From positions 14,947 through 78,946 of IMG/VR virus record IMGVR_UViG_3300035034_001897: DNA of 64,000 bases; one strand, written 5' to 3'. Both the position numbers and the translations under genes were made by a program. Origin of the DNA: a virus. The notes below the pieces were generated by a model. That model saw only the letters and a program-made list of their open reading frames with translations. It searched no databases and was not told the origin of the DNA. Shown here piece by piece: positions 516 through 52,251 of the stretch. Each line of letters starts with the position of its first letter. The stretch's first letter is position 1.

Positions 516-2001
516 ATGGATTTAGAAGAGCAAATTAGATCAAGAAGACGTGAACAAGCTGCACAAATTGCACAATCATTAGGTGTAGATTTGATTAAAG
601 GTAAGGCTGCTGATGAAGGTGAAGAAAGAGAGTGGGGTGGTAAGAAATATAAGAAAACTAGTGGTAAATGGATACCAGTTACTGATGGAAAAGATAAAAA
701 GAAGGATGATGACCCGAAGAATTCATCTAAAAAGTCAGAGGATCCTAAATCAGATGGTAAAGCAAAACCTAGTGCAGGTGAAGGTGTTGATAAGCACGAA
801 ATAGCACAACTTACTGCATTGAAAGCTACAATGGAATCTAATCCAGAAAAAGCATATGAAATCTTCCAATCACTCAGTCCAGAAGCGCAACAAGCTGTTC
901 CTCAAGATGTGGTTAACAAATTGGTTGAAGGTAGTCATAGTGAAGGTGAAGATGAGGCTGAAGGTGTTTGAGGATGACGATCAAGAGTCTTTTGATCAAG
1001 CAGCTTATGATAAGGCTATTGAATCTAAAGATACTAATGCAGTTATTGAGCAAGCAGTTAAGTTGAAGGATGAAGAATTGCAAGAGAAAATTGACATACA
1101 TTATCAAATGGCCAGTGCAGGAGCAACTGGTGGTCACACAAAGTTAGTTAATATCTTAGGTAAAATAAAAGAAGCGAGATTAGAAGGTTTAAATAATGTA
1201 AACGATTCTTACTCAAAAGAGCAGATTCACAGTGAAATCGATAGTCAGTTAGAAAACTTCTTTGAAGACACTTCAAATATAGATGTTGAAGGATTAAAAG
1301 AAGAGGTTGAAAAAAGATTTCAAGAAGAAGATAAAAAAGAAAAGGCAACTAGTGACAGAGATATGCAAGACGTAGTGTCAGCAATCTTAACAGATATGGT
1401 TGATGAGCAGAGTGAAGATGTAAAGAAAAAACAAGAAAATTCTCTAAGTCAGTGGAATGATGAATTAGATCCTGATGACGCTTTTTTTGATATCAAAAAT
1501 CAAGTGAGAGAAGATTATGGAATAGACGAGCTTGATGAGGAAGGTGAGGAAGAAAATGAAGACGATATAATGAGAGAAGCTAATGATATATTTAGAGTCC
1601 GATTCGGATTTGATAATTATCAAGACGCTATATCTGCGATGGAAAGTAAGATGGAAAGTAAGAGTGAAAGTTCAAATAAAACTTATGATGGCATTAGAGA
1701 ATGGGTAGGAGACTATAACGACGCTCAAGTAGAAAATGTAATCGAAGGCTTTAATGAATCAGGATTTACTCAAAAGAATCTTGAGATAGCTCAAGGAAGG
1801 TCGTCAGAAGAACATATGAATAGAGTAGGAGAGCGAGCAGAATCTCTTGCAAAAAAAATCGTAGCAAACCAAAAAAATCCAATGGATCAAGATGAGGTAG
1901 CTGAAATTGTAGAAGGTATGATTGAATCAAAGTTCAAGATTACAGATTGGGATAATCAAAAAAACATTAAAAAATCATTAGACATCTTATTACAATCATA
2001 A
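516..2001 (+). CDS. Leader-bearing acidic protein, putative internal head cargo; frame break near 960
   Basis: ATG 516 gives MDLEEQIRSRR...DLIKGK. This frame stops at 971, while the +1 frame (856..2001) becomes protein-like from VFEDDDQE. Ends NIKKSLDILLQS. Confidence 0.6.
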
Positions 2002-2003
2002 TT

Positions 2004-3377
2004 ATGGAATTAGAAAATCAAATTGCACAGAAGAGAGAATTGCAAAAATCCAACATTAATCAAATGATGGGTATTCAACATTCACAACCTCAACCTATAG
2101 TTGAAGTTGATATGGATGATGTGCGAAAAGCCATAACTCAAATCCAATTAGGTAGAGAGGAAAATCTTGACATCATCAAAGGGAAAGTTCTTCCAGTTGG
2201 AACCATTCGTAAGAGAGGTGATCAAAACTGGATTAAGATTTCAGAAACTGGACCTAGTGCAAAGCAATGGAAATATCACTCTAAAGCAGGTAGTGAGAAA
2301 GGTCAGACAGCTAAGATTGAAGCAATGAGTGAGCCTGAAAAGATGGAGTCAAGAGCACTTGCAAGTAAACTATTCACACTTGTCAATAAGGTAGGTGGAG
2401 CAAAGACGTTTGGAGAGCAAATGAAACTTATTGAAGACGCTGGTATTACAGATCCTGAAAAAGTGGTGGAGCTTACTAACCAAAACTTATCTGACGTATT
2501 GAAATATATGGATGGCAAAGGAATGGAAAAGAAGCGTCAAGACTTCAACATCAAAGACGAATTAGCGAAGTTAGAGATGATGGATGCTATTAAGACTGGT
2601 TTTGATAAAATCGATGTAAAAGATCGTTGGGAATCATATAGAGTATTTCTTGATCTAGTTGCAAATGGTACTGCAAAGAGTATGATCGCTTATGGTACGG
2701 GAGGTATAGGTAAAACGTACAATGCAACAAAAATATTCGCAAAAAACAACTTAGCTGAATATGATGGAGATGTTCACGAAGCTGGTGATAGTAATTATGA
2801 TTACGTTAAAATCACTGGTAAAACATCACCAACTGCATTATATGCAGCATTATACGAACATAATGGTAAGTGTTTGATGTTCGATGACTGTGATAGTGTG
2901 TTAGAGCACGATGATTCAATCAACATTCTCAAAGGAGCGTTAGATAGTGGTGGAGATAATTCAATCGCTTATGCATCAGGTAAGAAGCTTAAAACAGAAA
3001 AAGGTGAGACAGTTCCTCAACGATTTAAGTTTACTGGTAGGGTAGCATTCATTACCAATCTTACAGCTGAAAAAATGCCTCAACCTCTTCGTAGTAGAGC
3101 ATTTACAGCAGATTTAACAATGACGCCAGATGAGACGGTAACGATGATGGAGGAAATTATCCACAAAATAGAATTTCAAAATGCTCAAGGTGCAGCGATA
3201 CACGTATCAACTGAAGATAGACAGTCAGCAATCGACTTTATTTCAGATAATGTGAACAATATCAATGTTCGAGATCTCAATTCAAGAACGCTTGGGCAAA
3301 TAGCAATAATCAAAAAGAAATTGAGCAGCCATCCAACATTAGATTGGAAAACTGCTGCGATTGCAATGTTAACATAA
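2004..3377 (+). CDS. AAA+/P-loop ATPase with N-terminal shared leader
   Basis: Walker A YGTGGIGKT, Walker B LMFDDCD, LRSR arginine-finger-like motif. N-terminus MELENQI...DIIKGKVLPVGT. Confidence 0.8.
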   Translation: MELENQIAQKRELQKSNINQMMGIQHSQPQPIVEVDMDDVRKAITQIQLGREENLDIIKGKVLPVGTIRKRGDQNWIKISETGPSAKQWKYHSKAGSEKGQTAKIEAMSEPEKMESRALASKLFTLVNKVGGAKTFGEQMKLIEDAGITDPEKVVELTNQNLSDVLKYMDGKGMEKKRQDFNIKDELAKLEMMDAIKTGFDKIDVKDRWESYRVFLDLVANGTAKSMIAYGTGGIGKTYNATKIFAKNNLAEYDGDVHEAGDSNYDYVKITGKTSPTALYAALYEHNGKCLMFDDCDSVLEHDDSINILKGALDSGGDNSIAYASGKKLKTEKGETVPQRFKFTGRVAFITNLTAEKMPQPLRSRAFTADLTMTPDETVTMMEEIIHKIEFQNAQGAAIHVSTEDRQSAIDFISDNVNNINVRDLNSRTLGQIAIIKKKLSSHPTLDWKTAAIAMLT

Positions 3378-3389
3378 AACACAAATATT

Positions 3390-3515
3390 ATGGCAAATGA
3401 TTTAACACAAGTACCGTTAGATAAATTAGATTTGATTTATAAAACGCAGGAGTCAGGTCCTTTAAAGGATACGATTGCAAAGGAGATTCAGCATAGAGTA
3501 AATGCTGAAAAATAA
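3390..3515 (+). CDS. Small hypothetical protein (41 aa)
   Basis: Read directly: MANDLTQVPLDKLDLIYKTQESGPLKDTIAKEIQHRVNAEK. AT-rich start context; fills the gap between genes. Confidence 0.55.
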   Translation: MANDLTQVPLDKLDLIYKTQESGPLKDTIAKEIQHRVNAEK

Positions 3516-3523
3516 CTACACTA

Positions 3524-3560
3524 ACTGTTGGTAGAAAGATATTAAAGTAGTATCTTTATG
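3524..3560 (+). promoter_or_regulatory. Conserved phage promoter, class A (GTTG-N20-TATCTTTA, with an internal inverted repeat)
   Basis: actgttggtagaaagatattaaagtagtatctttatg. Near-identical copies at 20405-20440(-), 51753-51786 and 62094-62126. Resembles the Bacteroidota -33/-7 consensus. Confidence 0.75.
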
Positions 3561-3578
3561 TAAAGAAGTAATAACACT

Positions 3579-4010
3579 ATGAGCTTAGAGCAACAAATAC
3601 GTAACAGAAGAATCGCACAAGCAAATCAAATCACAGATATGTGTGGTGGAGATAATCTCGTCAAAGGTAAAGAAATGCCAGTAGGTACTGTTAGTAATGG
3701 CAGAAAGAAAATGCCAAATGGAAGTTGGGTGCCAGTTAGTGAAGAAAAAAGCTCCTCTAAGACACCTCATCCTAAACTAAAAGATTCTCATAGATGGCAA
3801 GTAGAATCTCATATGAAGCAAGCAATTAAAGGAGATAAAAACATAACAATCTCTATGATGGGAGGAGATGTGACTACTCATAAGAAAGGCGAAGAGTTTA
3901 TGTATAGAGCAACAGTTCAGTCAAAAACTAGAGATAAGATGAGAGAATCTTTAGATAGTGCAGGAGTAGACATCTTGAGTGCAAAGAAGTTCGGAGAATT
4001 ATTTAATTAA
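3579..4010 (+). CDS. Leader-bearing hypothetical protein
   Basis: MSLEQQIRNRR...NLVKGKEMPVGT...GSWVPV. Confidence 0.75.
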   Translation: MSLEQQIRNRRIAQANQITDMCGGDNLVKGKEMPVGTVSNGRKKMPNGSWVPVSEEKSSSKTPHPKLKDSHRWQVESHMKQAIKGDKNITISMMGGDVTTHKKGEEFMYRATVQSKTRDKMRESLDSAGVDILSAKKFGELFN

Positions 4011-4019
4011 CGAGTCGCA

Positions 4020-4550
4020 ATGGATCAAATCAAAAAATCAATCGAATCTATCTCAAGAGAAGATAACGCAGACATCCTAATTAAAGGAAAAGCCTTACCA
4101 ATTGGAACGATTAAAAAGCGTCCTAACGGCAATTTCATTAAAACTGCAAGTGGATGGAAATATCACTCGAAGCACGACAAGAATCAGAAAGCACAAGCTA
4201 GTGAGAAGAAAAGTGAAAGACCTCAAAGACACCAATTCAATTCTCAACAAGAATATGAAAAGAAGTTGTTATCTCACACTGGACCTGGAGGAGGAAATCA
4301 AGATAAAGGTAAATCTCCAGATGGAATTTCCGAGAGTATGCTTAAAAAAGTAAATCTAGCGGATAACCATTTAGAAGGTAAAGTTTTTAATATAGGTAAA
4401 GGAGCTCGACTCAGAGTCGATAGTGTAAAAGGAGACATTGCTAAAATAACTAAAATAGATAAGTTTAACAATACCTCAACACACGAGGTGTCTGTAAAAG
4501 ACAATAGTGGAGAAGGAGGTTTATTTTCATATAAAGAAATTAAAAAATAA
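4020..4550 (+). CDS. Leader-bearing basic hypothetical protein
   Basis: MDQIKKSI...ILIKGKALPIGTIKKR...WKYHSK. Shares WKYHSK with the 2004 ORF. Confidence 0.75.
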   Translation: MDQIKKSIESISREDNADILIKGKALPIGTIKKRPNGNFIKTASGWKYHSKHDKNQKAQASEKKSERPQRHQFNSQQEYEKKLLSHTGPGGGNQDKGKSPDGISESMLKKVNLADNHLEGKVFNIGKGARLRVDSVKGDIAKITKIDKFNNTSTHEVSVKDNSGEGGLFSYKEIKK

Positions 4551-4688
4551 TGCATAATATTCAAATCGTAAATTCAGATCAATTACACATCGTAGAGCAA
4601 GCCTCTCTAAAACAAATAATTCTAATGCCTAATTTTGGAGTAAAGTTGGATATTAGGTTGGTGTAGAGATATTAGGTACCTTTATGAA

Positions 4689-5147
4689 ATGAAAAAGGTT
4701 ACCACAAAAGATCTTGAGATTGCAGTATTGCAATACGATAAGCAAGCAGAGCTGAGAAGTCTGCGAACATCTCTTCCTTGGGAATGTGATGTGCTTAGTG
4801 TAACTAAAAGTGGTTATGCAACTGAATATGAGTTGAAGATTAGCAAGAGTGATTTCAAAGCTGATTTTAAAAAGCGTAAGCATAAAATGTTCAGTAAAGG
4901 TGAGGGAGGAATGGTGAGTAGGTTTTGGTTTGTAGTACCAAAAGATATGGTTGACAAAAAAGACATTCCTCAATATGCAGGATTAATGTATTACGACCAT
5001 AAAAGGAGAACAGTGCATCCAGTTAAATATCCGCAAAGATTAAAAGCTGGTAAATTAGATAGCAAAACAATTCGTAGATTATATCGCTCAATGATGTATC
5101 GATTTCTACAACTTAATTTCAAAGGGTACAGAAAAGTAACCTTCTAA
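4689..5147 (+). CDS. PD-(D/E)XK nuclease, MmcB-like
   Basis: ECDVLSV...EYELKISKSDFKADFKK matches the MmcB-like E-x-K-x-S-x-x-D-F-x-x-D pattern. Confidence 0.65.
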   Translation: MKKVTTKDLEIAVLQYDKQAELRSLRTSLPWECDVLSVTKSGYATEYELKISKSDFKADFKKRKHKMFSKGEGGMVSRFWFVVPKDMVDKKDIPQYAGLMYYDHKRRTVHPVKYPQRLKAGKLDSKTIRRLYRSMMYRFLQLNFKGYRKVTF

Positions 5148-5158
5148 AAATCGTAAAA

Positions 5159-5638
5159 ATGAAAACAATAAAAGGAGATTTAATTCAGCTAGCATTACAA
5201 GGAGAATTTGATGCAATTGCACACGGATGTAATTGTCACAATATGATGGGTGCTGGAATAGCATTACAAATTAGAAAAGCATTTCCTGGTACATATCAAA
5301 TAGATACGCAATACAGTCAGGTACAAGATGACTACAATAAGTTAGGTACTATTTCAGTATGTGACGTTGAGCAATATAACGACAAACAAGATCTCACTAA
5401 ACAGACAGGATCGTTTACAGTTATAAACGCATACACTCAATTTGATGGAGGAAGGAATTTAGACTACGATGCATTGAAAATGTGTTTGAAGAAGATTAAT
5501 CACTACTTTAAAGGAAAGAAAATTGGATTACCTCAAATAGGTTGCGGAATTGCAGGAGGTAATTGGAATATAGCAAAAAGATACATTGAGCAGTATTTAA
5601 GTGATTGTGATGTAACAATCGTTGAATATTCTCGTTAA
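5159..5638 (+). CDS. Macro domain protein (ADP-ribose binding/hydrolase)
   Basis: IKGDL, AHGCNC..MGAGIA, NAYTQ and PQIGCGIAGGNW motifs. Confidence 0.9.
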   Translation: MKTIKGDLIQLALQGEFDAIAHGCNCHNMMGAGIALQIRKAFPGTYQIDTQYSQVQDDYNKLGTISVCDVEQYNDKQDLTKQTGSFTVINAYTQFDGGRNLDYDALKMCLKKINHYFKGKKIGLPQIGCGIAGGNWNIAKRYIEQYLSDCDVTIVEYSR

Positions 5639-5640
5639 GA

Positions 5641-5805
5641 TTCACTTAGGGAGTAGGTTTTTTAGAGCTTGGCCAAATTCACATCAAGCCCGAAGTTTAG
5701 TGTGCTACGACTGTCGCTCTCCCGTGTGTAATTCGGAGTGACGGTCAACAGTAGTTAAGGTGATCCTACTTTAAATTCATTCTCGCCAAACATTAATCAA
5801 GTGAA
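5641..5805 (+). ncRNA. Putative structured non-coding RNA, family unassigned
   Basis: Nested stems: TTCACTT 5641/AAGTGAA 5799; AGTAGG 5652/CCTACT 5765; GCTTG 5667/CAAGC 5685; GCTAC 5704/GTAGT 5751; GACTGTCGCTC 5709/GAGTGACGGTC 5736 with G-U pairs. GC-richer than its flanks. Confidence 0.5.
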
Positions 5806-5809
5806 CACT

Positions 5810-5833
5810 AACACCTCTTCGGAGGTGTTTTTT
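5810..5833 (+). terminator. Intrinsic terminator with cUUCGg loop
   Basis: AACACCTC-TTCG-GAGGTGTT followed by a T-run. Confidence 0.85.
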
Positions 5834-5834
5834 A

Positions 5835-5867
5835 TTTGGGTTGGTAATATTATTTTACTTATATTTA
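5835..5867 (+). promoter_or_regulatory. Bacteroidota-type promoter, class B
   Basis: TTTG-N21-TATATTTA upstream of ATG 5888. Confidence 0.5.
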
Positions 5868-5887
5868 ACAACTCAATTACACACATT

Positions 5888-6262
5888 ATGAAAACACAAG
5901 TTAGAAATTCAGGAAATATTAGTACTGGAGAAGTTAGATCATTTGAACACACATTAAGTGCAGACAGTAAAATGGATAGCACTTTAACCATTCCAATGAT
6001 CGGCTTTACTAAAGCCGCTGTAAGCATTCAAACGATCGGAGCAGTAGGAACGAGTGGCAATGTGTTAATTAAACAAAGCGTTCGTGAAGGAGGTCCTTAT
6101 GCAGAGTTCACTGCACCAATCTCAAAAGCAATTGCAGCGAGTGGAACTGTAGAAGAATATGATATTGATGTGAGTGGTGGATATTTAATAGTAGATTTAT
6201 CACAAGTTACTCAAGGAGATGAGGGAAGATTTGACATAGTAGTAATAATCAAAAGACAATAA
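5888..6262 (+). CDS. Small beta-rich hypothetical protein (possibly virion-associated)
   Basis: Start placed at ATG 5888 (MKTQVRNSG); the longer GTG start would run through the terminator. Confidence 0.6.
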   Translation: MKTQVRNSGNISTGEVRSFEHTLSADSKMDSTLTIPMIGFTKAAVSIQTIGAVGTSGNVLIKQSVREGGPYAEFTAPISKAIAASGTVEEYDIDVSGGYLIVDLSQVTQGDEGRFDIVVIIKRQ

Positions 6263-6263
6263 T

Positions 6264-7059: not shown

Positions 7060-7124
7060 TGAGTTAATTATAGCAGAGTATTTCAGTTATATAATTACAG
7101 AAAAATAACTCAATTAGATTAATT

Positions 7125-9467: not shown

Positions 9468-9470
9468 AAC

Positions 9471-11987: not shown

Positions 11988-13703
11988 ATGTCATACTTAG
12001 ATTATACCATTCCTACATCACAAGCATCATCATCACTCGACAGTGAACTACAGAGAATTCAAGTCGAGAAGGGTCAGATTGCTCAACGAGAATATAGAGC
12101 ACTATCTCAAGCATTGTCATCAGACAATCCTAATGACATCATTAAAGCCAATACTTATTGGGAAGATGTTCAAAACAGACAAGATAGTGGAGTCAAAACT
12201 AGACTAGTTGATCCTAATGAATGGACTCAAGGTGCTGGCTATAAACATAAAAGATTTCAACTAGATTATAGTACATTGAGAAGGATGGTGTCAACTACTC
12301 CTATCATTAAAGCTATTGTAGGAACTAGACAGGCTCAAGTGAGTGCGTTTTCAACTCCACAGAAGAGTAAGTATGAAACTGGATTCGTTATTCGTAAGAA
12401 AAGGGAGTTTTATACAGACGAAGAGCCTATTGTAACTCGAGAAGATAAGCAGACTATTAATGAATTAACGAAATTCATTCTTAATGGTGGTGATGACGAA
12501 AATGCGTGGAATGGAGACACTTTTGATACGTTTCTTAAAAAACTAGCAAACGACTCACTAACGTTAGATCAAGCGTGTTTTGAAATAGTTAGAAGTAATA
12601 AAGGTGAGCCAGTTGAATATCTAGCAGTAGATGGAGCGACAATAGTATTAGCAGACACACATAACGATGAGCAAGAGGTTGTTGATAGAGAATATGATCA
12701 CGCAGGAAATAAACGTAAAAGAGTAAGAGGCTATTTACCATCATACGTTCAAGTAATTGATTCAGTAATTCACAATGAATACTATCCTTGGGAAATGTGT
12801 ATGGGAATTAGAAATTCTACTACAGATATCAGATCGAATGGGTATGGTAAAAGTGAAGTAGAGGAATTAGTTAGTATTATTACTTGGATGTTATATGGAG
12901 ACACATATAACGGAAAATTTTTTAGTCAAGGTAGCAATCCAAAAGGAATGCTTAAAGTAGGTTCAGGAGTTAATAGAAACCGACTCGCAGAGTTTAGACA
13001 GCAATGGTTATCAATGGTAGCTGGAGTTCAGAATGCTTGGAAGGTTCCAATGGTTGAGGGAGATGTTGAATGGATTGATATGCAGAAAGGCAATCGAGAT
13101 ATGGAGTTCTCGGCGTGGCAAGAATACTTGATAAAGGTTGCGTGTGCAGTATTTAAGATCGCACCAGAAGAGGTTGGATTTAATATCGATAAGAGTGGAG
13201 GTCTTGGTGGAGAAAATGATAGCGATGTCAAAATTAGATATTCGAGAGATAAAGGATTGAAGCCAATGCTGAAATCATTTGAGTTCTGGATTAATAAGTG
13301 GTTAGTTGCTCCTAAAAATGCAGACTTTGAGTTTAAGTTTGTAGGATTAGATACAGATAGTGAAGAGAAAGAGGTTGAACTACTCAATAAAAAAGTTGAG
13401 CATGGAATGGGTCTTAAAGAATATCGTCGTGCAATTGGATTGCCAGAAGATTTAGAAGAAGGAGACTTCCCACTTAACAATATATATGTTCAAATGCAAG
13501 GACAATTAGCAATGCAAGAGCAGAGTGAAGAAAATGGAGAATTCGTTGATCAAGATCAGGCAAGTGAAGAAGATGATTTCTGGAACAGTATTGATATGGA
13601 AAAAGGTGTGCTTGATCAAATGAATCAATTGAAAGTGTATAAAGGCAACCCTATGATGAAGGATGCATTAAATATGTTAATTGGAGATGGAGCAGCAAAA
13701 TAA
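11988..13703 (+). CDS. Portal protein (SPO1/Twort-like)
   Basis: DSLTLDQACFE, NGYGKSEVE, FFSQGSNPKG, DMEFSAWQEYLIKVACAVFKIAPEEVGF and SRDKGLKP motifs. Confidence 0.92.
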   Translation: MSYLDYTIPTSQASSSLDSELQRIQVEKGQIAQREYRALSQALSSDNPNDIIKANTYWEDVQNRQDSGVKTRLVDPNEWTQGAGYKHKRFQLDYSTLRRMVSTTPIIKAIVGTRQAQVSAFSTPQKSKYETGFVIRKKREFYTDEEPIVTREDKQTINELTKFILNGGDDENAWNGDTFDTFLKKLANDSLTLDQACFEIVRSNKGEPVEYLAVDGATIVLADTHNDEQEVVDREYDHAGNKRKRVRGYLPSYVQVIDSVIHNEYYPWEMCMGIRNSTTDIRSNGYGKSEVEELVSIITWMLYGDTYNGKFFSQGSNPKGMLKVGSGVNRNRLAEFRQQWLSMVAGVQNAWKVPMVEGDVEWIDMQKGNRDMEFSAWQEYLIKVACAVFKIAPEEVGFNIDKSGGLGGENDSDVKIRYSRDKGLKPMLKSFEFWINKWLVAPKNADFEFKFVGLDTDSEEKEVELLNKKVEHGMGLKEYRRAIGLPEDLEEGDFPLNNIYVQMQGQLAMQEQSEENGEFVDQDQASEEDDFWNSIDMEKGVLDQMNQLKVYKGNPMMKDALNMLIGDGAAK

Positions 13704-14055: not shown

Positions 14056-14446
14056 ATCACTGTCACTAACTGACTTTTTAAAATCCATTACAGATGTAAT
14101 GGAAATGGTCATCTCTCCAGACACAGTGGTAGTAATGAAAAAGCCTCACGCGAAATATATTGCTGGCATAAGAGTGAAGTACAATTATCAACTTAAATAT
14201 TCAGTAGAGCAAGATTCAACTATAACTGCATTACAACAAAAAGTTGGAGAGTATATTAAAGGAGAATCTCTACTATTTCGACGCATAACTACAAAAGATA
14301 CTGTCATTATTGCTCTACAAACAGTTAATAAAGGATTAGAAAGAGAGAGAGATGGTTTTGAGTCTTTATGGAAGGATCAGAAGAAAACTACTTGGTTAGT
14401 TGGAATAATAGCGGTATTAACTACAATATTAGGTTTTACGTTATAA
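13988..14446 (+). CDS. Spanin-like secreted protein with C-terminal TM
   Basis: Signal peptide MKNFVVLIVMTLCTCAFS|Q, coiled coil, C-terminal hydrophobic helix. Confidence 0.5.
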   Translation: MKNFVVLIVMTLCTCAFSQESNKSLSLTDFLKSITDVMEMVISPDTVVVMKKPHAKYIAGIRVKYNYQLKYSVEQDSTITALQQKVGEYIKGESLLFRRITTKDTVIIALQTVNKGLERERDGFESLWKDQKKTTWLVGIIAVLTTILGFTL

Positions 14447-14580
14447 TGACACAAAAAAAGAAAAAATACTTAGATCGACCGAGATTTCCAGTGATAAATG
14501 ATTATGAGAATGATTTCAGAAAATCTTGGAAATTGTCAATGAAGATAGCTTTGAAAGAAATTGAAAATAAAATCAAATGA
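14446..14580 (+). CDS. Small hypothetical protein (44 aa)
   Basis: TAATG-coupled start, MTQKKKKYLDRPRFPVI. Confidence 0.5.
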   Translation: MTQKKKKYLDRPRFPVINDYENDFRKSWKLSMKIALKEIENKIK

Positions 14581-15070
14581 TAGAAATTACAACATCAATT
14601 CACAAACGTCAGCAACAAATTCGTGCCAATATAGTGAAAGGATTAAAGACTCCTACATTTAGTGGATTTAAGTTAGAGAACAAATACAACTATAAGGTTT
14701 ACAGATTTCAATAGAGAATAAGCAAGGATCTACACGTAAATGGAAAGATGGAGATAAAGAAGGTTCTACGTTAATGCACTATGATTATGGATATATTAGA
14801 AATACTGTAGGAAACGATAACGATCACGTTGACTGCTACATTAATTCAAAAAATATAGTTGATCAAGTCTTTGTTATTCATCAAAATAGACCTAAAACTG
14901 GTCAATTCGATGAAGATAAGGTAATGTTAGGTTTTGATAGTGCAGACGAAGCTAAGAGAGCTTATTTAACTCATTACGATAGCGAAAAATTCTTTGGATC
15001 GATGACTGAAATGACCCTCGATCAATTCAAAAGCAAAGCGTTAGGTAAAAAAAATCGTAAAATTCAATAA
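14577..15070 (+). CDS. Inorganic-pyrophosphatase-like (InPase) domain protein with leader; 1-nt frame break at ~14694
   Basis: Adding one base at tataaggt gives MIEITTSIHKRQQQIRANIVKG...GLQISIENKQGSTRKW...MHYDYGYI..DNDHVDCY...FDEDKVMLGF. This is the InPase pattern of phage polyvalent proteins. Confidence 0.75.
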
Positions 15071-16035
15071 TGATACTTAGTCCAAATCAAATTACAGATT
15101 TACTGTCGATTATAGACAAATACACTTTGACGTTTGCAGCACACCATATAGGAGTGCAAGGAATGAATCAAGCTCAACTAAATTTACTGCAGCAATCAGG
15201 AGTGAATATATCTAAGATAGCAATTCAAACATCAAATATTAATCAAGCATTTAGGTTTGGAATTCTTAGCAGTGCGTTAGGAGATGCAAATGCTAAGAAT
15301 ATGAGTTACAGTCAACTCAAAGGATTTATTAGTAGTGGAAAGATGTTTAAGTTGTCAGCTATTGAAAGTGCAGCTCTACAAAATCTACAATATCAAACAG
15401 TAACGCAAGTAGTCAAATTTGGAGATAAGATTAAAAACGATATCATTGACAAGTTGGTGTACGCTGACAAGAAAAATAATGCAGTTAAGCACAGTAAGGT
15501 TGTTACAGATGCAGTCAACAACGCAATACAAGAAAGAAAAGGAGTGCAATCAGTAATTTCAGATATTGGTCACGAATTAGATAATTGGGATAGAGATTTT
15601 GGTAGAATAGCAGATTTTGTAATGCATACAGCATTTGAGGAAGGTAGAGCATTGAAAATTATGCAGACACAAGGAAATCAATCTTTAGTATATAAAGATG
15701 TGTACTTAGGAGCTTGTCCTCATTGCATAAAAAACTATCTTACTGGAGGAATTGGAAGTGCGCCTAAAATATTCACTATTCAACAAATAACAGCGAACGG
15801 GACTAATGTAGGGAAGAAAGTGAAAGATTGGTTGCCAGTATTAGGACCTCTTCATCCTTGGTGTAGATGTACATTAATGCAAGTACCTAACCAATTCAAT
15901 TTAATAGACTATAACAACGGCTTATGGTTATGGGACGGAAGACAGTTTATAAGAAATGCTGATAAATATCAGCGCAAAGTAAGGCGAAATAGTAAAGTAA
16001 AAGTAACTGTTAACGGAAAAACAACGGAAGTATGA
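15070..16035 (+). CDS. Head morphogenesis protein (MuF / SPP1 gp7-like)
   Basis: ACPHC and GPLHPWCRCTL motifs; lies between portal and protease. Confidence 0.8.
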   Translation: MILSPNQITDLLSIIDKYTLTFAAHHIGVQGMNQAQLNLLQQSGVNISKIAIQTSNINQAFRFGILSSALGDANAKNMSYSQLKGFISSGKMFKLSAIESAALQNLQYQTVTQVVKFGDKIKNDIIDKLVYADKKNNAVKHSKVVTDAVNNAIQERKGVQSVISDIGHELDNWDRDFGRIADFVMHTAFEEGRALKIMQTQGNQSLVYKDVYLGACPHCIKNYLTGGIGSAPKIFTIQQITANGTNVGKKVKDWLPVLGPLHPWCRCTLMQVPNQFNLIDYNNGLWLWDGRQFIRNADKYQRKVRRNSKVKVTVNGKTTEV

Positions 16036-16281: not shown

Positions 16282-16566
16282 ATGAAAACATTTATTTTCG
16301 AAAACGCTGGAAAAACTTTAAAAGTAGCAATTAAATGCGATGTTTTCGCAACTAATGCGCAACTACAAGAGCCAGGATTTGATACTCGATTTACAGCAAT
16401 GACAGTAGAAGATAGCGATGAAGCAATTCAAGCTGGACTGAACATTAATGAGATGGAGCAAAATCTTCAAGGATTGAAAGCAAAAGCTACAGAATTAGGA
16501 TGGTCTCTTTCAGTAGCTGACATCAATGAAGAAGGTGGAACAATTGAATTAGTTGCAGCAGTATAA
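16282..16566 (+). CDS. Hypothetical head-module protein
   Basis: Coupled to the protease gene by TAATG. Confidence 0.65.
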   Translation: MKTFIFENAGKTLKVAIKCDVFATNAQLQEPGFDTRFTAMTVEDSDEAIQAGLNINEMEQNLQGLKAKATELGWSLSVADINEEGGTIELVAAV

Positions 16567-18146
16567 TGAAACAGCAATTCCAAACACATATACCTCTTGA
16601 GTTAATCAAAGGAAAGGATCAAGAAGGCAACCCTATTATGAAAATGAGAGGTGTTGCTTCTACTCCATCCGAAGATGCAGATAAGGAATTTTTAGAGCCT
16701 AAAGGATTTGACTCTGAATATTTCCTCAAGCACGGATTTATGAATTGGAATCATCAAGCAAACAACGATCCGTCAGCAATTGTTGGCAAGCCTACTGGAG
16801 CAAGTGTTGATGGAGAAGATTACGTAATAGACTTCAATCTATTTCCAGATAGCAAAAAAGCTCAACAAATCTATGAATTGCAAAAAGTTCTCGAATCTCA
16901 AGGACTTGCGTTAGGTTTATCTATCGAGGGTAAAGTCCTTGAGAGAGATCCTTTAAATAATAGTAGAGTAACTAAAGCTAAAATAACTGGATGTGCTATC
17001 ACGCCTAATCCAAAGAATCAAGATACAGTAACTCAAATAATTAAGGGTCACGATTATGATGCATTAATTAGCGATTCTGACGAAGAGGACGAAGAGGATG
17101 AAGATGGTGATAAGAAAGAGAAGGCTTTATCTGCAGCATCAGCTAGTGGACAAGCAATAACAAAAGAGTCTCTTGATGGAGATTTAAAAGACATTACACA
17201 AAGTAAAAAATTAACCAAAGGTGAGGTTATTGAGAAAATTTCACTAGATTTACCATCCCTAAACGAGGATCAAGTTAAATCTATTTATAATTTAACACAT
17301 AAAATTCAAAAAGCAATCGATATGGATACTGCAACAAAACAAAAAGAAACTCCAACAATTACTCCAGAAACGTTAAAGAAAGCGTACGATATACTAAATT
17401 TAGTATCTCCAGAAAAAGCGTTAGAAAAGAGTGAAGCTGGCAATAATGATTTGTCAGGTAATGACGGACTATCTCTTGAGGAAATCACAGCAAAGAAGAA
17501 TGAACTGGAAAAATCTCTTGCAGCAGTTACTGAGCTTGAGAAAGCGTGTAAGACTGAAAAAATGAATGACGACGACGATATGAAGAAGTCGGAAGATGAT
17601 GATAAGAAAGATGATGATGATAAGAAAGATGATGATGCAGACGACGACAAAAAAGACGACAAAAAAGACGACAAAATGGAAAAAGGTCTTGGTGATACTG
17701 TAATAGGGCAGAACAATGACGAATTAATCAAGTCACTTACTGCAGTATTTAAAGGAGAGCTTGGTCAAATAGAAGCTGGATCGAATGAAAAATTCAAAGC
17801 TGTTGGTCAATTAATGAAGTCTTTCACTGGAACAGTAGAAGCTATTGACGAGCGATTATCTGCTTTTGAAAATCAGACGAAAGGACGTAAGTCTGTTACA
17901 ACTCAAAAGCAACACGTAATTGAAAAGTCGTTTGCAAGCGATCAACAAGACGTTCAAGGTGACCAAAAACAATATTTGAATTTGACAGCACACAAAACAC
18001 AGATTTCAAAAGCTCTTACAGACAGTTTTCTAGCAAGCGAGAATAAAGATGAGACTTTAAGAAAAGGAATACTATTATATGATCAATCTGGACAAGCAAA
18101 TCCAACAATTCAAGCGAAAGCGAGAGAATTAGGATTGATCAAGTAA
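16566..18146 (+). CDS. Prohead protease fused to scaffold
   Basis: GVASTPSEDAD, NWNH, GLSIEG and GCAITPNPKN (HK97/SPO1-type protease). Acidic coiled C-terminal half with many hydrophobic-x-K-(S/A/G) sites. Confidence 0.88.
   Translation: MKQQFQTHIPLELIKGKDQEGNPIMKMRGVASTPSEDADKEFLEPKGFDSEYFLKHGFMNWNHQANNDPSAIVGKPTGASVDGEDYVIDFNLFPDSKKAQQIYELQKVLESQGLALGLSIEGKVLERDPLNNSRVTKAKITGCAITPNPKNQDTVTQIIKGHDYDALISDSDEEDEEDEDGDKKEKALSAASASGQAITKESLDGDLKDITQSKKLTKGEVIEKISLDLPSLNEDQVKSIYNLTHKIQKAIDMDTATKQKETPTITPETLKKAYDILNLVSPEKALEKSEAGNNDLSGNDGLSLEEITAKKNELEKSLAAVTELEKACKTEKMNDDDDMKKSEDDDKKDDDDKKDDDADDDKKDDKKDDKMEKGLGDTVIGQNNDELIKSLTAVFKGELGQIEAGSNEKFKAVGQLMKSFTGTVEAIDERLSAFENQTKGRKSVTTQKQHVIEKSFASDQQDVQGDQKQYLNLTAHKTQISKALTDSFLASENKDETLRKGILLYDQSGQANPTIQAKARELGLIK
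17566..17676 (+). repeat. Low-complexity DDDKK coding repeat in the scaffold
   Basis: gatgatgataagaaa and gacgacaaaaaa tandem units. Confidence 0.7.
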
Positions 18147-18206: not shown

Positions 18207-19736
18207 ATGGAAAACTTAACAGTACCCTTAGCGTCATATTCGCACGGAAGTGGTTTCGGAGCAGATGCAAGTCAGCAAGCAAATTTGAGCGCGTCTCAAC
18301 TAGCTGAATTGTCAAAAGCCCTTGAAGCTGGTCAGTTGCAAGGTGGAGCAATGGGTAACCCTGCGCAATCAAACGGTGGTGCACTAAAGACAGAGTCTTT
18401 AGAAAGCTCACTTAAACTAATTACTTTCCGTGAAGCGGATATTCGTTTTTGGAAGAGATTCCCAAAAACAGCTGCTTATAATACGGTAGAAGAGTACAAC
18501 CAACACACGAGCTATGGTACTGATCGTGGAGGATTCAATAACGAAGGTGAATTGCCGGAAGAAGAAGACTCTAGCTATGTACGTAAGGCAGAACACGTGA
18601 AGTATTTAGGTGTAACTAAATCAGTTACCCACCCAATGCAATTGGTGAATACTAACGTTGGAGATATCATTCAGAAGGAAACTACTAATGGTATTATGTG
18701 GATCTTACGTAAAGCTGATAGAGCTTTATTTTATGGAGATGAGAAAGTTGTTTCTCAAGAATGGAATGGTTTATATGCTCAGCATTTAAACAATGATCAG
18801 TTTGCTAACTTAGAAGAGTATTACAGCTCTCCATTAGTAATTGACCTTAGAGGTTCTGCTCTTACAGAAGCTAACATTGAGAGTGGAGCTCAAGTACTTT
18901 TAACGAAGTTTGCTCAACCTAACTTAATGGTTGCACCTCCAGTAGTATTTAGTGAATTTGCTAAAGGATTCTACGCACGTCAACGTATTGCAACGGGAGG
19001 AAGTGTAAATGGTAATGTTACTGGCGCTACAATGGGTCAACACATTAGTAACTTCCAATCTATGTACGGATTGATTGACTTTGAGTATGACATCTTTGCT
19101 GCGAAAAACCCAGGGAAACTTTCTACAGTAGGAGGTACATCACCAAAAGCACCTACAGCACCTACAGTTGGAGCAACTCCAATAGCAGTTGTAAATGCAG
19201 ACGGACAGTCTCGTTTCAATGACGGAACTGGTGATTATTACTACGCAGTTACTGCTATAAACCGATATGGTGAATCAGCAATGACTCAGTTAGGAGGATC
19301 TGTTACTGTTGCAAACGCAGATGATAGTGTAGATTTACAGTTTACTGCGACACCAGGACCTTACACTCCAAATGCTTATGTAGTTTATCGATCTAAAAAG
19401 AATCCTTCTGGATCTTTTGCAATGACAACGATGTATCCTATCGCTACAGTACCAGTTGCTGGAACAGATGCTAAGAGAGGTTCTCTTGCAAATGGAGTTG
19501 ATGGTGGTGCAGCAGGAATTGTTAGAGATAGAAATAGAATTCTACCTGATACTCAAGAGGCTCTTCTTTTACAAGGAGATACAGATGTGATCGAGTTCAA
19601 GCAACTTGCACCTCTTATGAAAATGCCACTTGCGAAGTTGAGTCCAGCTGACCGATTTATGGTCTTGCTTTATGGTACTCCAATTGTGTACGCACCATCT
19701 AAGATGATACGTTACATCAATATTGGTAAAGCGTAA
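18207..19736 (+). CDS. Major capsid protein (SPO1/Twort-like)
   Basis: LSKA cleavage-type site, GGALKTESLE, ALFYGD, EWNGL, FN3-like insertion (YYYAVTAINRYGES), PLMKMPLA..F.VLLYG. Confidence 0.93.
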   Translation: MENLTVPLASYSHGSGFGADASQQANLSASQLAELSKALEAGQLQGGAMGNPAQSNGGALKTESLESSLKLITFREADIRFWKRFPKTAAYNTVEEYNQHTSYGTDRGGFNNEGELPEEEDSSYVRKAEHVKYLGVTKSVTHPMQLVNTNVGDIIQKETTNGIMWILRKADRALFYGDEKVVSQEWNGLYAQHLNNDQFANLEEYYSSPLVIDLRGSALTEANIESGAQVLLTKFAQPNLMVAPPVVFSEFAKGFYARQRIATGGSVNGNVTGATMGQHISNFQSMYGLIDFEYDIFAAKNPGKLSTVGGTSPKAPTAPTVGATPIAVVNADGQSRFNDGTGDYYYAVTAINRYGESAMTQLGGSVTVANADDSVDLQFTATPGPYTPNAYVVYRSKKNPSGSFAMTTMYPIATVPVAGTDAKRGSLANGVDGGAAGIVRDRNRILPDTQEALLLQGDTDVIEFKQLAPLMKMPLAKLSPADRFMVLLYGTPIVYAPSKMIRYINIGKA

Positions 19737-19805: not shown

Positions 19806-20393
19806 CTACTTAGTTCTTTTAGTTATAATAAATCTCCAATGAGAAACCTTCTCAAAGCAAGACACCCAAACTAACCTAGCGTGAGCAGTTCCTATTAACG
19901 TTTTGATAGTACAACCATTTTTTTTATCCCAACTTGATTTGTAAGACTCAATCAAGAAACTAAATTCTCTACGATCTTCAATCCACGTTCGCTGTACTTT
20001 AAGAACACCATCCATCATTCCAAAGCCAACTAATCGTTCAGAGATGTTAGATAATTTACTGTTGAAAGTTTCTTCTGCTTGCTTTAACCACAACAACGAG
20101 TTAATGTTTACTCTTGAAGCAGATTCTCGCTGTAAAGTGAGTGTGCGATTTAGATTGATGTAAGTTGAGTCGTGGTCAGAATAATCTTTCATTTTCTCAA
20201 CAGTAAACTTGATATCTCGCTCAATCTGTTTTTGGTTGTAAGAAACTGCTGAGTCGTAATATCTCTCTCTCATTGGACGAGTTTCTCTATTCATAATAGC
20301 ATAAGCTCTCTCTAAATCTTGCTTAGCTCTCTTTTGACTTGCTGTTAATTTTACTGCTTGACTTTTCACAATTTCCGATTTTAGTGTTAGCAT
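19806..20393 (-). CDS. Hypothetical protein (only clear minus-strand gene)
   Basis: 195 aa ORF with no + strand competitor; has its own class A promoter and a terminator. Confidence 0.75.
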   Translation of the reverse strand: MLTLKSEIVKSQAVKLTASQKRAKQDLERAYAIMNRETRPMRERYYDSAVSYNQKQIERDIKFTVEKMKDYSDHDSTYINLNRTLTLQRESASRVNINSLLWLKQAEETFNSKLSNISERLVGFGMMDGVLKVQRTWIEDRREFSFLIESYKSSWDKKNGCTIKTLIGTAHARLVWVSCFEKVSHWRFIITKRTK

Positions 20394-20404
20394 TTCTTTC
20401 TGAT

Positions 20405-20440
20405 ATAAAGATACTACCTTTATATCTTTCTCACAACAGT
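20405..20440 (-). promoter_or_regulatory. Class A promoter copy
   Basis: Reverse complement actgttgtgagaaagatataaaggtagtatctttat. Confidence 0.75.
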
Positions 20441-43230: not shown

Positions 43231-43235
43231 CTAAA

Positions 43236-44144: not shown

Positions 44145-44146
44145 AA

Positions 44147-44177: not shown

Positions 44178-44181
44178 CTGA

Positions 44182-45759: not shown

Positions 45760-45760
45760 T

Positions 45761-46024: not shown

Positions 46025-46025
46025 T

Positions 46026-46676
46026 ATGAAAGTAGCAGATATAGTAATATGGGATATTGAAACTGGAGGTTTCAAAAAAGAAGATAATGGATTAGCAGAG
46101 ATTGCGATGATAGTAATTGATAGTGAAACCTTATTAGAAAAAGATCGTTATGAATGTGTTATAGCACCATACGAGCAACCTTCTGGAGAAATGAGTACAT
46201 ATAATCCAAAAGCGCTTGAAGTGAATGGATTGACGATGAAACAGATAAATAACGGAATCCCTGCAAAACAAGCAGTAAAAGAAATTAAAGAATTCTGCGC
46301 TAAGTATAAGAAAACTATGAAAGGTGGACAAGGGAAACTTATTCCAGCTGGTCATAACTTAGTTGGATTTGACATACCTTACTTAACCTTCTTCTTAGAA
46401 ATATTCAAAGTAAAATACTCAGACCTATTTCATCCGTTAGCAATTGACACAATGTTGTGGACTAGACTAAAATGGACTAGAGATGGATCAATAGCTAATC
46501 ATAAGTTAGGAACAGCTTGCGATATGGCTGGTGTGGCGTTAGTTGACGCTCACCGTGCAATGAATGATGTTGAAGGAAACGCTGAACTAGTGAGACACTT
46601 CATTAGAAGTATGAGACAGCAAGGTCAAGTAACACAAGCAAAAAAGAAAAGGTTCAGAGAGAAATTCAGATTCTAA
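46026..46676 (+). CDS. DEDDh 3'-5' exonuclease (DnaQ/epsilon-like)
   Basis: WDIETGG, GHNLVGFDIPYL and AHRAMNDV motifs. Confidence 0.92.
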   Translation: MKVADIVIWDIETGGFKKEDNGLAEIAMIVIDSETLLEKDRYECVIAPYEQPSGEMSTYNPKALEVNGLTMKQINNGIPAKQAVKEIKEFCAKYKKTMKGGQGKLIPAGHNLVGFDIPYLTFFLEIFKVKYSDLFHPLAIDTMLWTRLKWTRDGSIANHKLGTACDMAGVALVDAHRAMNDVEGNAELVRHFIRSMRQQGQVTQAKKKRFREKFRF

Positions 46677-48389: not shown

Positions 48390-48392
48390 AAT

Positions 48393-49763: not shown

Positions 49764-50781
49764 TCATACATATATACAAAATGAAGTAATCAAAGCGTTC
49801 AAGCTGGACGTTCGCAATAAATCTCCAAAAGGATGGATTCAAGGAGCAATTTGTCCATTCTGTAATCAGAATGATAAGTTTGGAATAAAGTTAAATAAAG
49901 TTAAAGGAGGACAATATCGCAATCACATCTCTTTTAACTGCTACAGAGGTAGCTGTCAAGAGAAAGGTAGTGAGTATAAGTTATTGACGGTTATTGGTAA
50001 AGGACATTTACTTAAACACGGAGAATTTATAGGTGATACTGAAAAAGTAACCAATACAATTATTGCAGTAGAAGAAATAATGCCTAAATTAGAGGTTCCT
50101 ACTGTCACTTTGCCATTTGGATTTAGAAGATGTAGTACACATCCATATTTAGTTGGAAGAGGATTTCAACCTTGGCAATTTGAGACGTATGTGATAGGTA
50201 CAACTAAACTAGATACTGGATTGAAAAATTATATAATTTTTTCAGTAACAGAAGAAGGAGAGCATAAAGGATATGTTTCAAGAATTGTGTGGGATGGAGC
50301 AACTATTGATCAGTATGAAAGAAGCACTGGAAGACGAGTTGCAAAATATAAAAATGAAGGAGGAGTTGATTTCGGTAAGCTACTTTTTGGAATTGATGAG
50401 ATAACTGAAAATACTGAACAAGTAATTCTAGTTGAAGGAGTAACCGACAAAACTAACGTTGATGTTGAGTTAGAACTATATTCATCTGAAGAAGTTAAGT
50501 GTTGTGCTACGTTTGGCAAGAAAATCAGTGAGGAACAGATAGTTAAGTTATGGTTGAAGGGAGTGAGAAAAGTAACTTTGATGTACGATCCAGATGCAAT
50601 TGAAGAGTCAAAACGATATGGTCACGTACTAGAGCTTTGGCAAATGGATGTAAAAGTAGGATATTTGTCTGACAAAGATCCAGGTGAATTAAATCGTGAA
50701 CAAATACATCAGGTTTTATTAGATAGTAAAACACCAAATCAATTCTCAATTGATAAGGTACAAAAACGAAAATTACAATAA
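49753..50781 (+). CDS. DNA primase (Zn finger + TOPRIM)
   Basis: CPFC...C...C, ILVEGVTD, YDPDA and KDPG motifs. Confidence 0.88.
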   Translation: MNNNHTYIQNEVIKAFKLDVRNKSPKGWIQGAICPFCNQNDKFGIKLNKVKGGQYRNHISFNCYRGSCQEKGSEYKLLTVIGKGHLLKHGEFIGDTEKVTNTIIAVEEIMPKLEVPTVTLPFGFRRCSTHPYLVGRGFQPWQFETYVIGTTKLDTGLKNYIIFSVTEEGEHKGYVSRIVWDGATIDQYERSTGRRVAKYKNEGGVDFGKLLFGIDEITENTEQVILVEGVTDKTNVDVELELYSSEEVKCCATFGKKISEEQIVKLWLKGVRKVTLMYDPDAIEESKRYGHVLELWQMDVKVGYLSDKDPGELNREQIHQVLLDSKTPNQFSIDKVQKRKLQ

Positions 50782-51290
50782 TGACACACAAATCAAGAAA
50801 CTTGCCTCTTTACGATTTCTTAGAATGCTTGCAACAAGAATATGTTGCAGCAGAAGTGAGGAGTAAAACATATCCATCAAACAACGATAAGAGGTATCAT
50901 CGTAAAGTGATGGGATATAAGAGAGAAAAAATCGAAGATATTGCTCAACGCAATCAACTTTCAACGATATTTAATGATCAGACGAAAATGAAAAATATGT
51001 ACAATTCAATGTACACTCATTTTGGATTACCTGAATTTTGCTATAAAGATGACAGCGATAGATCTAAGTTTGAACAAAACGATATTCTCAACTACTTTGC
51101 TGTAGGAGGAGAAGTAAAGATTCAAGAGGAAAGTGGAATAAGTATAGGGATTATTAGTGATAATGAGCAGCTTGAAGTTAAGTGGCAAAATAACGAAGAT
51201 GACTTACAAAATACTCCAATTGCAGTTAAAAAGAGAAATGAGAGCGGAGACGTCGTAGTACTAATCTCTCAATTATCTAGAATTTTATAA
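50781..51290 (+). CDS. Hypothetical protein
   Basis: ORF track; coupled to the primase gene. Confidence 0.6.
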   Translation: MTHKSRNLPLYDFLECLQQEYVAAEVRSKTYPSNNDKRYHRKVMGYKREKIEDIAQRNQLSTIFNDQTKMKNMYNSMYTHFGLPEFCYKDDSDRSKFEQNDILNYFAVGGEVKIQEESGISIGIISDNEQLEVKWQNNEDDLQNTPIAVKKRNESGDVVVLISQLSRIL

Positions 51291-51302
51291 AAAATCGTAA
51301 CT

Positions 51303-51761
51303 ATGTTTCAATCAACAAAATTAGAAGATGGGTTTAGCGCTTGTTTTCGTCAATGGAAAGCAACAACAACGCACTGTAAACATCTTCACGGATATGCACT
51401 TTCATTTAAGATAGTGTTTGAAGGAGAGTTAGATTACAGAAATTGGATAGTAGATTTCGGAGGATTTAAACGAAGCAAAGTGTCCATTGATGGATTTTCT
51501 CCTAAAGAGTGGTTCAAGTATATGTTCGACCACACTACCGTTATATCAAATGATGATCCTGATCTAGAGACATTCAGAATGTTAGAGTCAACTGGAGCCA
51601 TTCAATTGAGATTAGTTGATGCTGTAGGCTGTGAAATGTTTGCAAAACTAGTGTATGACAAATTGCAAGACTGGGTTGAGTTAGAGACTAAAGGAAGATG
51701 CAGAGTCGTAAGTGTAGAGTGTAAAGAGCACGAAAAAAATTCTGCGATTTATGTTGGATAA
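51303..51761 (+). CDS. queD: 6-carboxytetrahydropterin synthase
   Basis: CKHLHGY, IVDFG, FDH, GCEMFA and EHEKNSA motifs. Confidence 0.9.
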   Translation: MFQSTKLEDGFSACFRQWKATTTHCKHLHGYALSFKIVFEGELDYRNWIVDFGGFKRSKVSIDGFSPKEWFKYMFDHTTVISNDDPDLETFRMLESTGAIQLRLVDAVGCEMFAKLVYDKLQDWVELETKGRCRVVSVECKEHEKNSAIYVG

Positions 51762-51786
51762 TAGATATAAAGGTAGTATCTTTATG
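51753..51786 (+). promoter_or_regulatory. Class A promoter copy
   Basis: gttggataatagatataaaggtagtatctttatg. Confidence 0.75.
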
Positions 51787-51808
51787 TAAAGGAAATGACA
51801 ATCATATT

Positions 51809-52251
51809 ATGGAAGAGATTCAAAAAGGAAATAGAGCAAGATTTGATCAGATCAAGAATCAAGTTGAAGATAGTTTTGAGAAAGGCAAAGAAATGCCAAT
51901 CGGCACTATTTCAAACGGACGCAAGAAAATCGCTAAGGTAAATGGGTGCCAGTTACGAAAGAGAAGGAGTCTATTAAAATAGACACTAACAGATTCTTTG
52001 ATCAAGTGTTTAGTGGAGAAACTATTAGATCTAAAAAAGACTACGAATCGACATTTAAGTCATCGATTGGATTAGATGACGCTGATTTAGAAATGCAACT
52101 TCGATTAGGTTTTGAGAAATATAAAAAAAGTAAATCGCACGACTATCACAGACTTCAATCTAAACCTTTTAGTAATCATAGAGATGCACTGATAAAATTC
52201 TTTAAGCACGGAAGAGACAAATTTATTAACAAGCAGGGAAAGAAACTTTGA
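51809..52251 (+). CDS. Leader-bearing hypothetical protein; 1-nt frame break at ~51936
   Basis: MEEIQKGNRARFDQIKNQVEDSFEKGKEMPIGTISNGRKKIA[K]GKWVPVTKEK..., nearly identical to KGKEMPVGTVSNGRKKMPNGSWVPV in 3579. Confidence 0.7.

Follow-up and report, generated by a model that had tools for sequence, protein, structure and literature searches.

In phage T4, the internal proteins IPI-III and Alt carry a capsid-targeting sequence (CTS), which is removed by the prohead protease gp21 (Mullaney and Black 1996, as reviewed in PMC9026906). Propeptides of the phiKZ type hold several redundant sites (PMC9026906). Phage-type polyvalent proteins, which include P1 DarB/DdrB and MuF-fused effectors, contain two to fifteen effector domains per polypeptide according to the relevant passages of Iyer, Burroughs, Anand, de Souza and Aravind (2017, PMC5512222), where zincin-like MPTase domains are proposed to process them. 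The window analysed here, a stretch of 64,000 nucleotides corresponding to bases 14947-78946 of a 78.9-kb IMG/VR phage record (IMGVR_UViG_3300035034_001897, approximately 76% complete), belongs to a phage in which six proteins with unrelated bodies show a homologous N-terminal cassette, which probably marks its carriers for loading into the capsid and for cutting. In hundreds of other phages, cassettes of this kind precede or separate anti-host enzyme modules.

The cassette is similar to the T4 CTS in being a short N-terminal peptide common to unrelated proteins. The CTS ends at the cleavage motif of the head protease, the cassette contains a strong match to the motif predicted for the protease of this phage, and in both systems the protease and the scaffold bear the respective motif. 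There is no sequence relation between them, and T4 cuts after Glu (L/I-x-E) with a protease of a different lineage, whereas the predicted cut in the cassette is after Lys, by a protease of SPO1/Twort type. The T4 CTS has 10 residues and is wholly removed, whereas the cassette shows a hairpin after the cut, which would stay on the cargo; unlike the CTS, the cassette is also located inside polyproteins. In T4, loading and cleavage are demonstrated and the CTS allows varied proteins to be loaded and injected; for the cassette we infer these steps. With the polyvalent proteins, as covered in the corresponding passages of PMC5512222, the cassette carriers share the repertoire (InPase, ART-PolyVal, ParB/ddrB-ParB, Zeta, NUDIX, SNF2 and LPD1) and the portal/MuF neighbourhood, which applies to 20 of 21 loci and, in this genome, to the InPase gene only. 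Relatives show two to four cassette-separated modules per chain, in chains of up to 2553 residues. Since the modules are separate genes in this phage, they are not polyvalent proteins in the strict sense; the term distributed polyvalent protein, suggested in the initial annotation, nevertheless fits them, because relatives carry the same units fused in giant polyvalent proteins. The searched passages of PMC5512222 contain no repeated linker or prohead-protease site (the word "linker" appears 0 times). Maturation in Herelleviridae (SPO1/Twort-like) shows a homologous protease and capsid protein and a hydrophobic-x-K↓[S/A] motif at the same capsid N-terminal position (↓, cut, observed or predicted), but the hairpin cassette and the tagged cargo genes are both missing from phage K.

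Organization of the cassette

A lineage-specific helix opens the cassette; it is followed by the motif hydrophobic-x-K-[G/A/S] (h-x-K-[GAS]) and then by a basic beta-hairpin with the pattern P-I/V-G-T...K-K...G-K-W. AlphaFold2, run on the protein encoded at position 3579 of the window with an alignment of 50 other carriers, predicts a helix at residues 3-21 with a predicted local distance difference test score (pLDDT) of 94, a linker at L-V-K-G with a pLDDT of 64, and a hairpin at residues 31-55 with a pLDDT of 89-95. In the sequence logo (n=289), the hydrophobic position is L/I/M/F/V in 98% of the copies, P1 is K in 98%, and P1' is G, A or S in 99%. The predicted cut is followed by K/R (95%), M/V/L, P (86%), I/V, G (99%) and T (88%), and further downstream by G-x-K-K (K 100%), G (97%), K, W (99%) and x-x-V. 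The 30 residues after the cut show 53% identity both within and between genomes, and the leaders before it show 41% identity within one phage versus 26% between phages, with only 12 within-genome pairs in this comparison. The post-cut tag is positively charged (net +5.9 per 32 residues), the leader neutral, and the scaffold part of the protease-scaffold protein, which contains a D/K-rich tract, negatively charged (net -26). The address label clipped at maturation, as first proposed, needs revision: what is conserved throughout is the hairpin downstream of the predicted cut, which would stay on the mature protein, and the helix ahead of the cut differs between lineages.

Copies of the cassette within the genome show different codons at about half of the identical residues, therefore selection acts on the peptide and not on the DNA. 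A DNA-level repeat or recombination box was ruled out by these differing codons, and a secretion signal was ruled out because the leaders are polar helices, not hydrophobic ones. No Pfam match covers the cassette (searched at E<=0.1 for the proteins of the window and at E<=1e-3 for 104 carriers), NCBIfam and PHROGs have no model over it, and no description of it was found in the searchable literature.

Cassette-bearing genes

Start codons and peptides were confirmed at positions 516, 2004, 3579, 4020, 14577 and 51809, the six genes to which the initial annotation ascribed a shared leader. When the N-terminal pieces were compared by pairwise BLASTP with all six reading frames of the complete 78.9-kb record, six cassette N-termini matched one another, with E values from 1e-13 to 1e-4 and no other matches in the genome. 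These are 516, 2004, 3579, 4020, 51809 and a topoisomerase IB (TopoIB); 14577 shows only the helix and the motif. The strict string K-G-K-x-x-P-[VI]-G-T has four occurrences in six frames, all at N-termini, and is absent from the TopoIB cassette, with a one-residue insertion, and from that of 516, with an E-for-T variant. The leader is portable: it precedes unrelated bodies, namely a TopoIB, a highly acidic protein, an AAA-type ATPase, an InPase and three proteins without family. All seven genes are single-module in this phage. The starts in the original gene list are right, but 516/856, 14577/14774 and 51809/51946 are each one frameshifted gene.

The C-terminal part of TopoIB occupies positions 1..513 (+) (Pfam Topoisom_I, E 5.8e-16). 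Its start is 674 nt upstream of the window and its cassette, MNLDDQIRNS...NIVK↓GKPSMPIGTISNGRKKIAEGQW, is at record position 14272 (L001:826) and matches that of 3579 with a BLASTP E value of 1e-10. The acidic cargo gene (516..2001, +) is split into 516-971 and 856-2001 by a frameshift near 955. Its cassette (516..680, +) shows the helix, L-I-K28↓G29 and the hairpin E-G-E-E-R-E-W-G-G-K-K-Y-K-K-T-S-G-K-W; this hairpin, described as divergent from the outset, is the recognised E-for-T variant, which recurs in the protein P0085. The gene is intact in another assembly as a 495-aa open reading frame (ORF), P0007, with a net charge of -52 and 100% identity over 346 residues. The AAA-type ATPase gene (2004..3377, +; phrog_1250, E 2e-37) has a double leader. 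Its cassette (nt 2004-2285) contains motifs at residues 13 and 40 and at I-I-K59↓G60, followed by the hairpin and a W-K-Y-H-S-K extension to residue 94. Within 2004-2180, the first helix resembles those of 516 and 3579 and ends in L-Q-K↓S, and the second helix, after an insert, resembles that of 4020, with D-D-V-R-K↓A ... I-I-K↓G, an arrangement suggestive of two leaders joined in tandem. Cassette-bearing orthologues of this ATPase are located in the head block of locus L019 and beside the cassette genes of Chryseobacterium phage MA9V-3, and a related-locus search with the ATPase itself gave no relative.

The gene 3579..4010 (+) encodes a 143-aa basic protein whose cassette (nt 3579-3737) contains the helix 3-21, L-V-K29↓G30 and the hairpin 31-53. 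The ESM Atlas has no usable neighbour for this protein. A homologue search with its residues 18-62 was empty, because the words of the 3579 copy are atypical, and the search succeeded with an alignment of consensus-like carriers. The gene 4020..4550 (+) encodes a 176-aa basic protein, and its cassette (nt 4020-4172), with I-K-K5↓S, L-I-K22↓G23 and a hairpin of the W-K-Y-H-S-K subtype, matches that of 2004 with a BLASTP E value of 3e-13. The InPase gene (14577..15070, +; Pfam InPase, E 2e-31) is broken by a frameshift at about 14694. Its leader is a polar helix followed by N-I-V-K21↓G22, identical to the N-I-V-K-G of TopoIB; it shows no hairpin, and BLAST gives no support for homology to the cassettes. 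The last cassette gene (51809..52251, +) shows F-E-K25↓G26 and the hairpin, is broken by a frameshift at about 51935, and sits between a QueD-like and a radical-SAM (QueE-like) gene. A Macro-domain protein without cassette (5159-5638; Pfam E 6e-8) is encoded directly after the cluster that ends with 4020, and its neighbour, gene 4689-5147, is likewise untagged.

The cut motif in scaffold, capsid and protease

The gene 16566..18146 (+) encodes a prohead protease fused to an acidic scaffold (phrog_1028, E 1e-32). As noticed in the first inspection of the sequence, the signature that ends the leaders is repeated in this protein, which contains 17 h-x-K-[GAS] motifs, one of them (L-I-K15↓G16) at the N-terminus of the protein itself, whereas composition-preserving shuffles give 3.1 (0/2000). 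In six further scaffolds or protease-scaffolds, taken from the loci described below, 9-21 motifs are present versus 1.7-3.0 expected (0/2000 each), and the putative scaffold of phage K, gp174, shows seven versus 1.4 expected, about five-fold (1/2000). Over-representation is thus 5-8x across the scaffolds of eight phages, phage K included. The control motifs h-x-E, h-x-R and the reversed motif are flat in scaffolds; K followed by another residue is also flat and is depleted in three scaffold sequences, and h-x-E-[GAS] shows no enrichment in scaffolds. The portal protein (11988..13703, +; phrog_12, E 1e-40; Pfam Phage_portal) contains eight motifs versus 2.2 in shuffles, with those near both ends at residues 26, 51, 537 and 550; the IIKA and MEKG reported at its ends are present, as is the LSKA of the capsid N-terminus.

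The major capsid protein of SPO1/Twort type (18207..19736, +; phrog_752, E 3e-83) shows a single N-terminal motif, E-L-S-K37↓A. Among cultured phages, the closest capsid proteins come from Bacteroides phages DAC16-23 (43% identity) and then from Chryseobacterium phage MA9V-3 (40% identity), with Herelleviridae next, and PDB 9vel (SPO1 Gp6.1) matches the capsid protein of the window with an E value of 1.5e-76 and A-L-N-K-A aligned at the motif. Every capsid protein compared, down to 27% identity, shows exactly one h-x-K-A, at residues 22-35; the DAC16 capsid protein shows L-Q-K-A at residue 9. The motif at which the cassette would be cut matches the one that is over-represented in scaffolds and keeps a fixed position in capsid proteins of this type of head, as the initial annotation anticipated.

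The protease domain of the window (16566-17075) is 32% identical to the head maturation protease of phage K (E 1e-20), and its L-I-K↓G aligns with L-K-K↓S of the phage K enzyme near both N-termini; no solved relative of the protease domain was found by sequence. The phage K capsid protein reads V-V-K24-S25 and has 463 residues in the full-length PDB entry 5lii. In PDB 9row, 9rox and 9roz, the phage K capsid chain has 439 residues and its residue 11 is residue 35 of the full-length protein, therefore the chain starts at S25, right after K24. This deposit is the sole experimental anchor for a cut after Lys.

Distribution in other phages

A profile built from the six copies and compared with 1.84 billion representative proteins, the scan of genome and relatives that had been suggested at the outset, gave 320 clusters at E<=1e-3, of which 28 reach E<=1e-10. 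One protein among the 320 clusters, P0142, which contains 18 repeats, was discarded as a profile false positive. The 254 instances defined by a regular expression comprise 130 N-terminal ones, with a median leader of 27 residues, and 124 internal ones, so the description as an N-terminal leader holds for the first group, and the second consists of polyprotein junctions. Two to four copies are present in 41 proteins, with a median spacing of 244 residues. The internal cassettes show a second motif 6-35 residues upstream in 73% of cases versus 5% in a control window, therefore a short helix would be excised between modules; these paired motifs resemble the redundant sites of phiKZ propeptides (PMC9026906). 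Pfam domains in 104 carriers are InPase, DUF5661, SAM lyase, DUF3293, NUDIX, ART-PolyVal, Zeta toxin, ParB, ddrB-ParB and LPD1, and the precomputed Pfam matches of carriers add SNF2 helicase and TopoIB. Against cultured phages, tblastn of a small cassette protein gave no match, and tblastn of a 2224-aa polyvalent carrier gave matches only through other domains.

Genomic context was analysed in 21 IMG/VR loci fetched via the cassette. Cassette genes are located among structural genes in 20 of them: 13 show the cassette genes directly after the portal gene, often ahead of MuF-like, protease and capsid genes, four more show a homologous capsid gene within 10 kb, and three more show other genes for the head or the tail. 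Several phages contain three to seven cassette genes in a row, and all copies cluster in the head block in the four near-complete relatives (4/4). The closest relative, L019, whose capsid protein is 79% identical, shows the order portal, 1079-aa three-cassette protein, cassette protein, cassette-AAA orthologue, cassette protein, MuF-like, protease-scaffold and capsid. In the cultured Chryseobacterium phage MA9V-3 (PV245944), two divergent cassette genes and the AAA orthologue are beside a MuF-like gene; the cassette genes are located at about 95.8-98.9 kb. The region of this phage between the MuF-like and protease-scaffold genes (L002 2164-6543) encodes a 1460-aa protein, in which the profile finds no cassette, and a NUDIX-like protein of 236 aa. 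Loci L008, L010, L015, L016 and L021 show after the portal gene an InPase as the first module of a longer chain, followed by a cassette; this InPase lacks a helical leader, its domain beginning close to the start codon, and an InPase with its own leader is found only in the window. Altogether, the phages with the cargo system are MA9V-3 and some of the uncultured phages, with sizes of about 85-115 kb.

Proposed function and alternatives

From the observed cassette homology, distribution, head-gene context, motif enrichment and homologous protease, we infer loading, cutting, hairpin retention and injection of the tagged proteins. This three-part cargo cassette, in which a helix docks, the prohead protease cuts and a basic hairpin stays, is a reading of sequence data that we consider reasonably probable. 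The helix, of about 15-25 residues, would dock the cargo to the assembling prohead core of its own phage, that is, to the acidic scaffold, the portal or MuF. The prohead serine protease would then cut at hydrophobic-x-K↓[G/A/S] in the flexible linker, and the same enzyme would cut the capsid N-terminus and shred the scaffold. The basic hairpin of about 25 residues (K/R-x-x-P-I/V-G-T...G-x-K-K...G-K-W-x-x-V, charge about +6) would become the new mature N-terminus and could hold the cargo to the acidic core and later to the packaged DNA, which would let cargo and DNA exit together. In relatives, where the cassette is located between the enzyme modules of giant polyvalent proteins, cutting would free the modules, and the phage of the window, with its seven single-module genes, would represent the disassembled form. 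A wider proposal is more tentative and seems to us possible rather than probable: the hairpin and the Lys cut site would be a universal transferable cargo label for heads of SPO1/Twort type, so that whatever protein follows it enters the prohead, chains would be cut by the prohead protease instead of the peptidase domains postulated for polyvalent proteins, and the hairpin would keep the pieces on the DNA for co-injection. A large group of uncultured phages would then follow one general, programmable rule in assembling and exchanging their injected counter-defence arsenals.

Several observations weigh against the cargo-label interpretation, and the initial annotation as a whole is partly supported. 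The portal-to-capsid block of this phage contains only the InPase gene, the five-gene cluster from TopoIB to 4020 is 7-13 kb upstream of the portal gene, and gene 51809 is 38 kb downstream, inside a 7-deazaguanine operon. Bare h-x-K-[GAS] is present within the first 50 residues of 33 of the 107 genes (31%) and, being common at N-termini by chance, proves nothing alone. No cassette was found in the whole phage K record or in 14 scanned head-block genes of Bacteroides phage DAC16, and since these phages share the head type and the capsid cut motif, the cassette is not required by the protease. The mature N-terminus of the phage K capsid protein was read from the length of a PDB deposit and not from a paper. 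The similarity of leaders within a genome, measured on 12 pairs only, could come from duplication and not from a shared docking partner. Finally, frameshifts break three of the seven genes here (516/856, 14577/14774 and 51809/51946), which could indicate dispensable genes or assembly errors.

Some of these points, together with the strong basic charge of the hairpin (+5.9 per 32 residues) and its confident fold on its own, would agree with a nucleic-acid- or partner-binding domain for intracellular use, unpackaged, in which L-x-K-G is part of the domain and not a protease site: most carriers in this phage are outside the portal-to-capsid block, one is in a DNA-modification operon, and the bodies include the DNA enzymes TopoIB and SNF2. 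We regard this as unlikely, because L-x-K-G is 98-99% invariant despite lying in a low-confidence, apparently flexible linker and matches the motif that is enriched only in scaffolds and fixed in capsid N-termini, 20 of the 21 loci place the genes among head genes, and the domain repertoire is that of packaged polyvalent proteins; such a domain would also leave the second motif upstream of internal copies without a role. Packaging without cutting is a second alternative and would agree with the gene order, since in most loci the cassette genes are after the portal gene and before the MuF-like gene. The cassette would then be a portal- or MuF-docking peptide, its likeness to the protease motif being coincidental, and the relevant passages of PMC5512222 describe MuF as the usual loading domain of polyvalent proteins and the N4 virion RNA polymerase (vRNAP) as packaged unprocessed; in addition, the MuF-like protein of the window has no cut motif. 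The invariance of P1 K and P1' G/A/S, as in scaffolds, the paired sites at internal cassettes and the motif at the N-terminus of the protease itself, aligned with that of phage K, make uncut docking quite unlikely.

A trace of recent duplication or shuffling of the 5' end of one gene, promoter and leader included, with no shared function, would account for a 23-nt box found before both 3579 and 51809 and for leaders that are more alike within than between genomes. It is contradicted by the distribution, logo and codon data and appears highly improbable: conservation of the cassette extends over 320 protein clusters of many phages, only about half of the codons are common at identical residues within the genome, and the tag is equally conserved between and within genomes. 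If the cargo-label interpretation is right, a peptide of about 50 residues marks capsid-carried proteins and polyprotein cut positions, which would make injected proteins predictable from sequence alone in hundreds of uncultured phages and would explain the processing of giant polyvalent proteins without a peptidase domain. The packaged topoisomerase IB, AAA ATPase and pyrophosphatase, unusual enzymes for such a role, would be actors of the first minute of infection, and the cassette would provide a handle similar to the T4 CTS with which selected proteins could be brought into another head type, unrelated to that of T4. The idea can be tested directly, because a cultured phage, Chryseobacterium phage MA9V-3, carries the cassette.

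Head-gene block and other features of the window

The window has 34% G+C and nearly all of its genes are on the + strand; megablast of positions 1-6000 against cultured phages gave no match. In the head-gene block, a gene encoding a MuF-like head protein (15070..16035, +), which contains C-P-H-C ... H-P-W-C-R-C, is located between the InPase and the protease-scaffold genes. Pfam and PHROGs show no match for this protein, which is assigned to its family by motif and synteny only; its orthologues adjoin cassette genes in loci L002, L010, L019, L023 and L024.

The three frameshifts (about 955, 14694 and 51935) are all at the string AAGGT, and the frame would be restored by AAAGGT (Lys-Gly) or GCAAAGGT. 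That AAGGT is systematically misread was considered and is not convincing, with an ORF gain of at least 60 aa on repair at 4 of 80 sites versus 83 of 4459 controls. As the record encodes a 7-deazaguanine pathway, miscalls linked to base modification could also be the cause.

The 23-nt promoter-like box, GATATWAARGTAGTATCTTTATG, shows four matches (0 expected), at 3538-3560 (+), 51764-51786 (+), 62104-62126 (+) and 20404-20426 (-), each 20-35 nt ahead of a start codon. The genes behind it are 3579, 51809, 62161 and the minus-strand gene 19806-20393, the only clear one on that strand, and the box probably represents one promoter class. The region 51303-57402 contains a set of 7-deazaguanine type, with genes for a PTPS/QueD-like protein (51303), a radical SAM QueE-like protein (52634) and a GTP cyclohydrolase I (54010); the cassette gene 51809 and a gene encoding a GIY-YIG endonuclease (53366) split this set.

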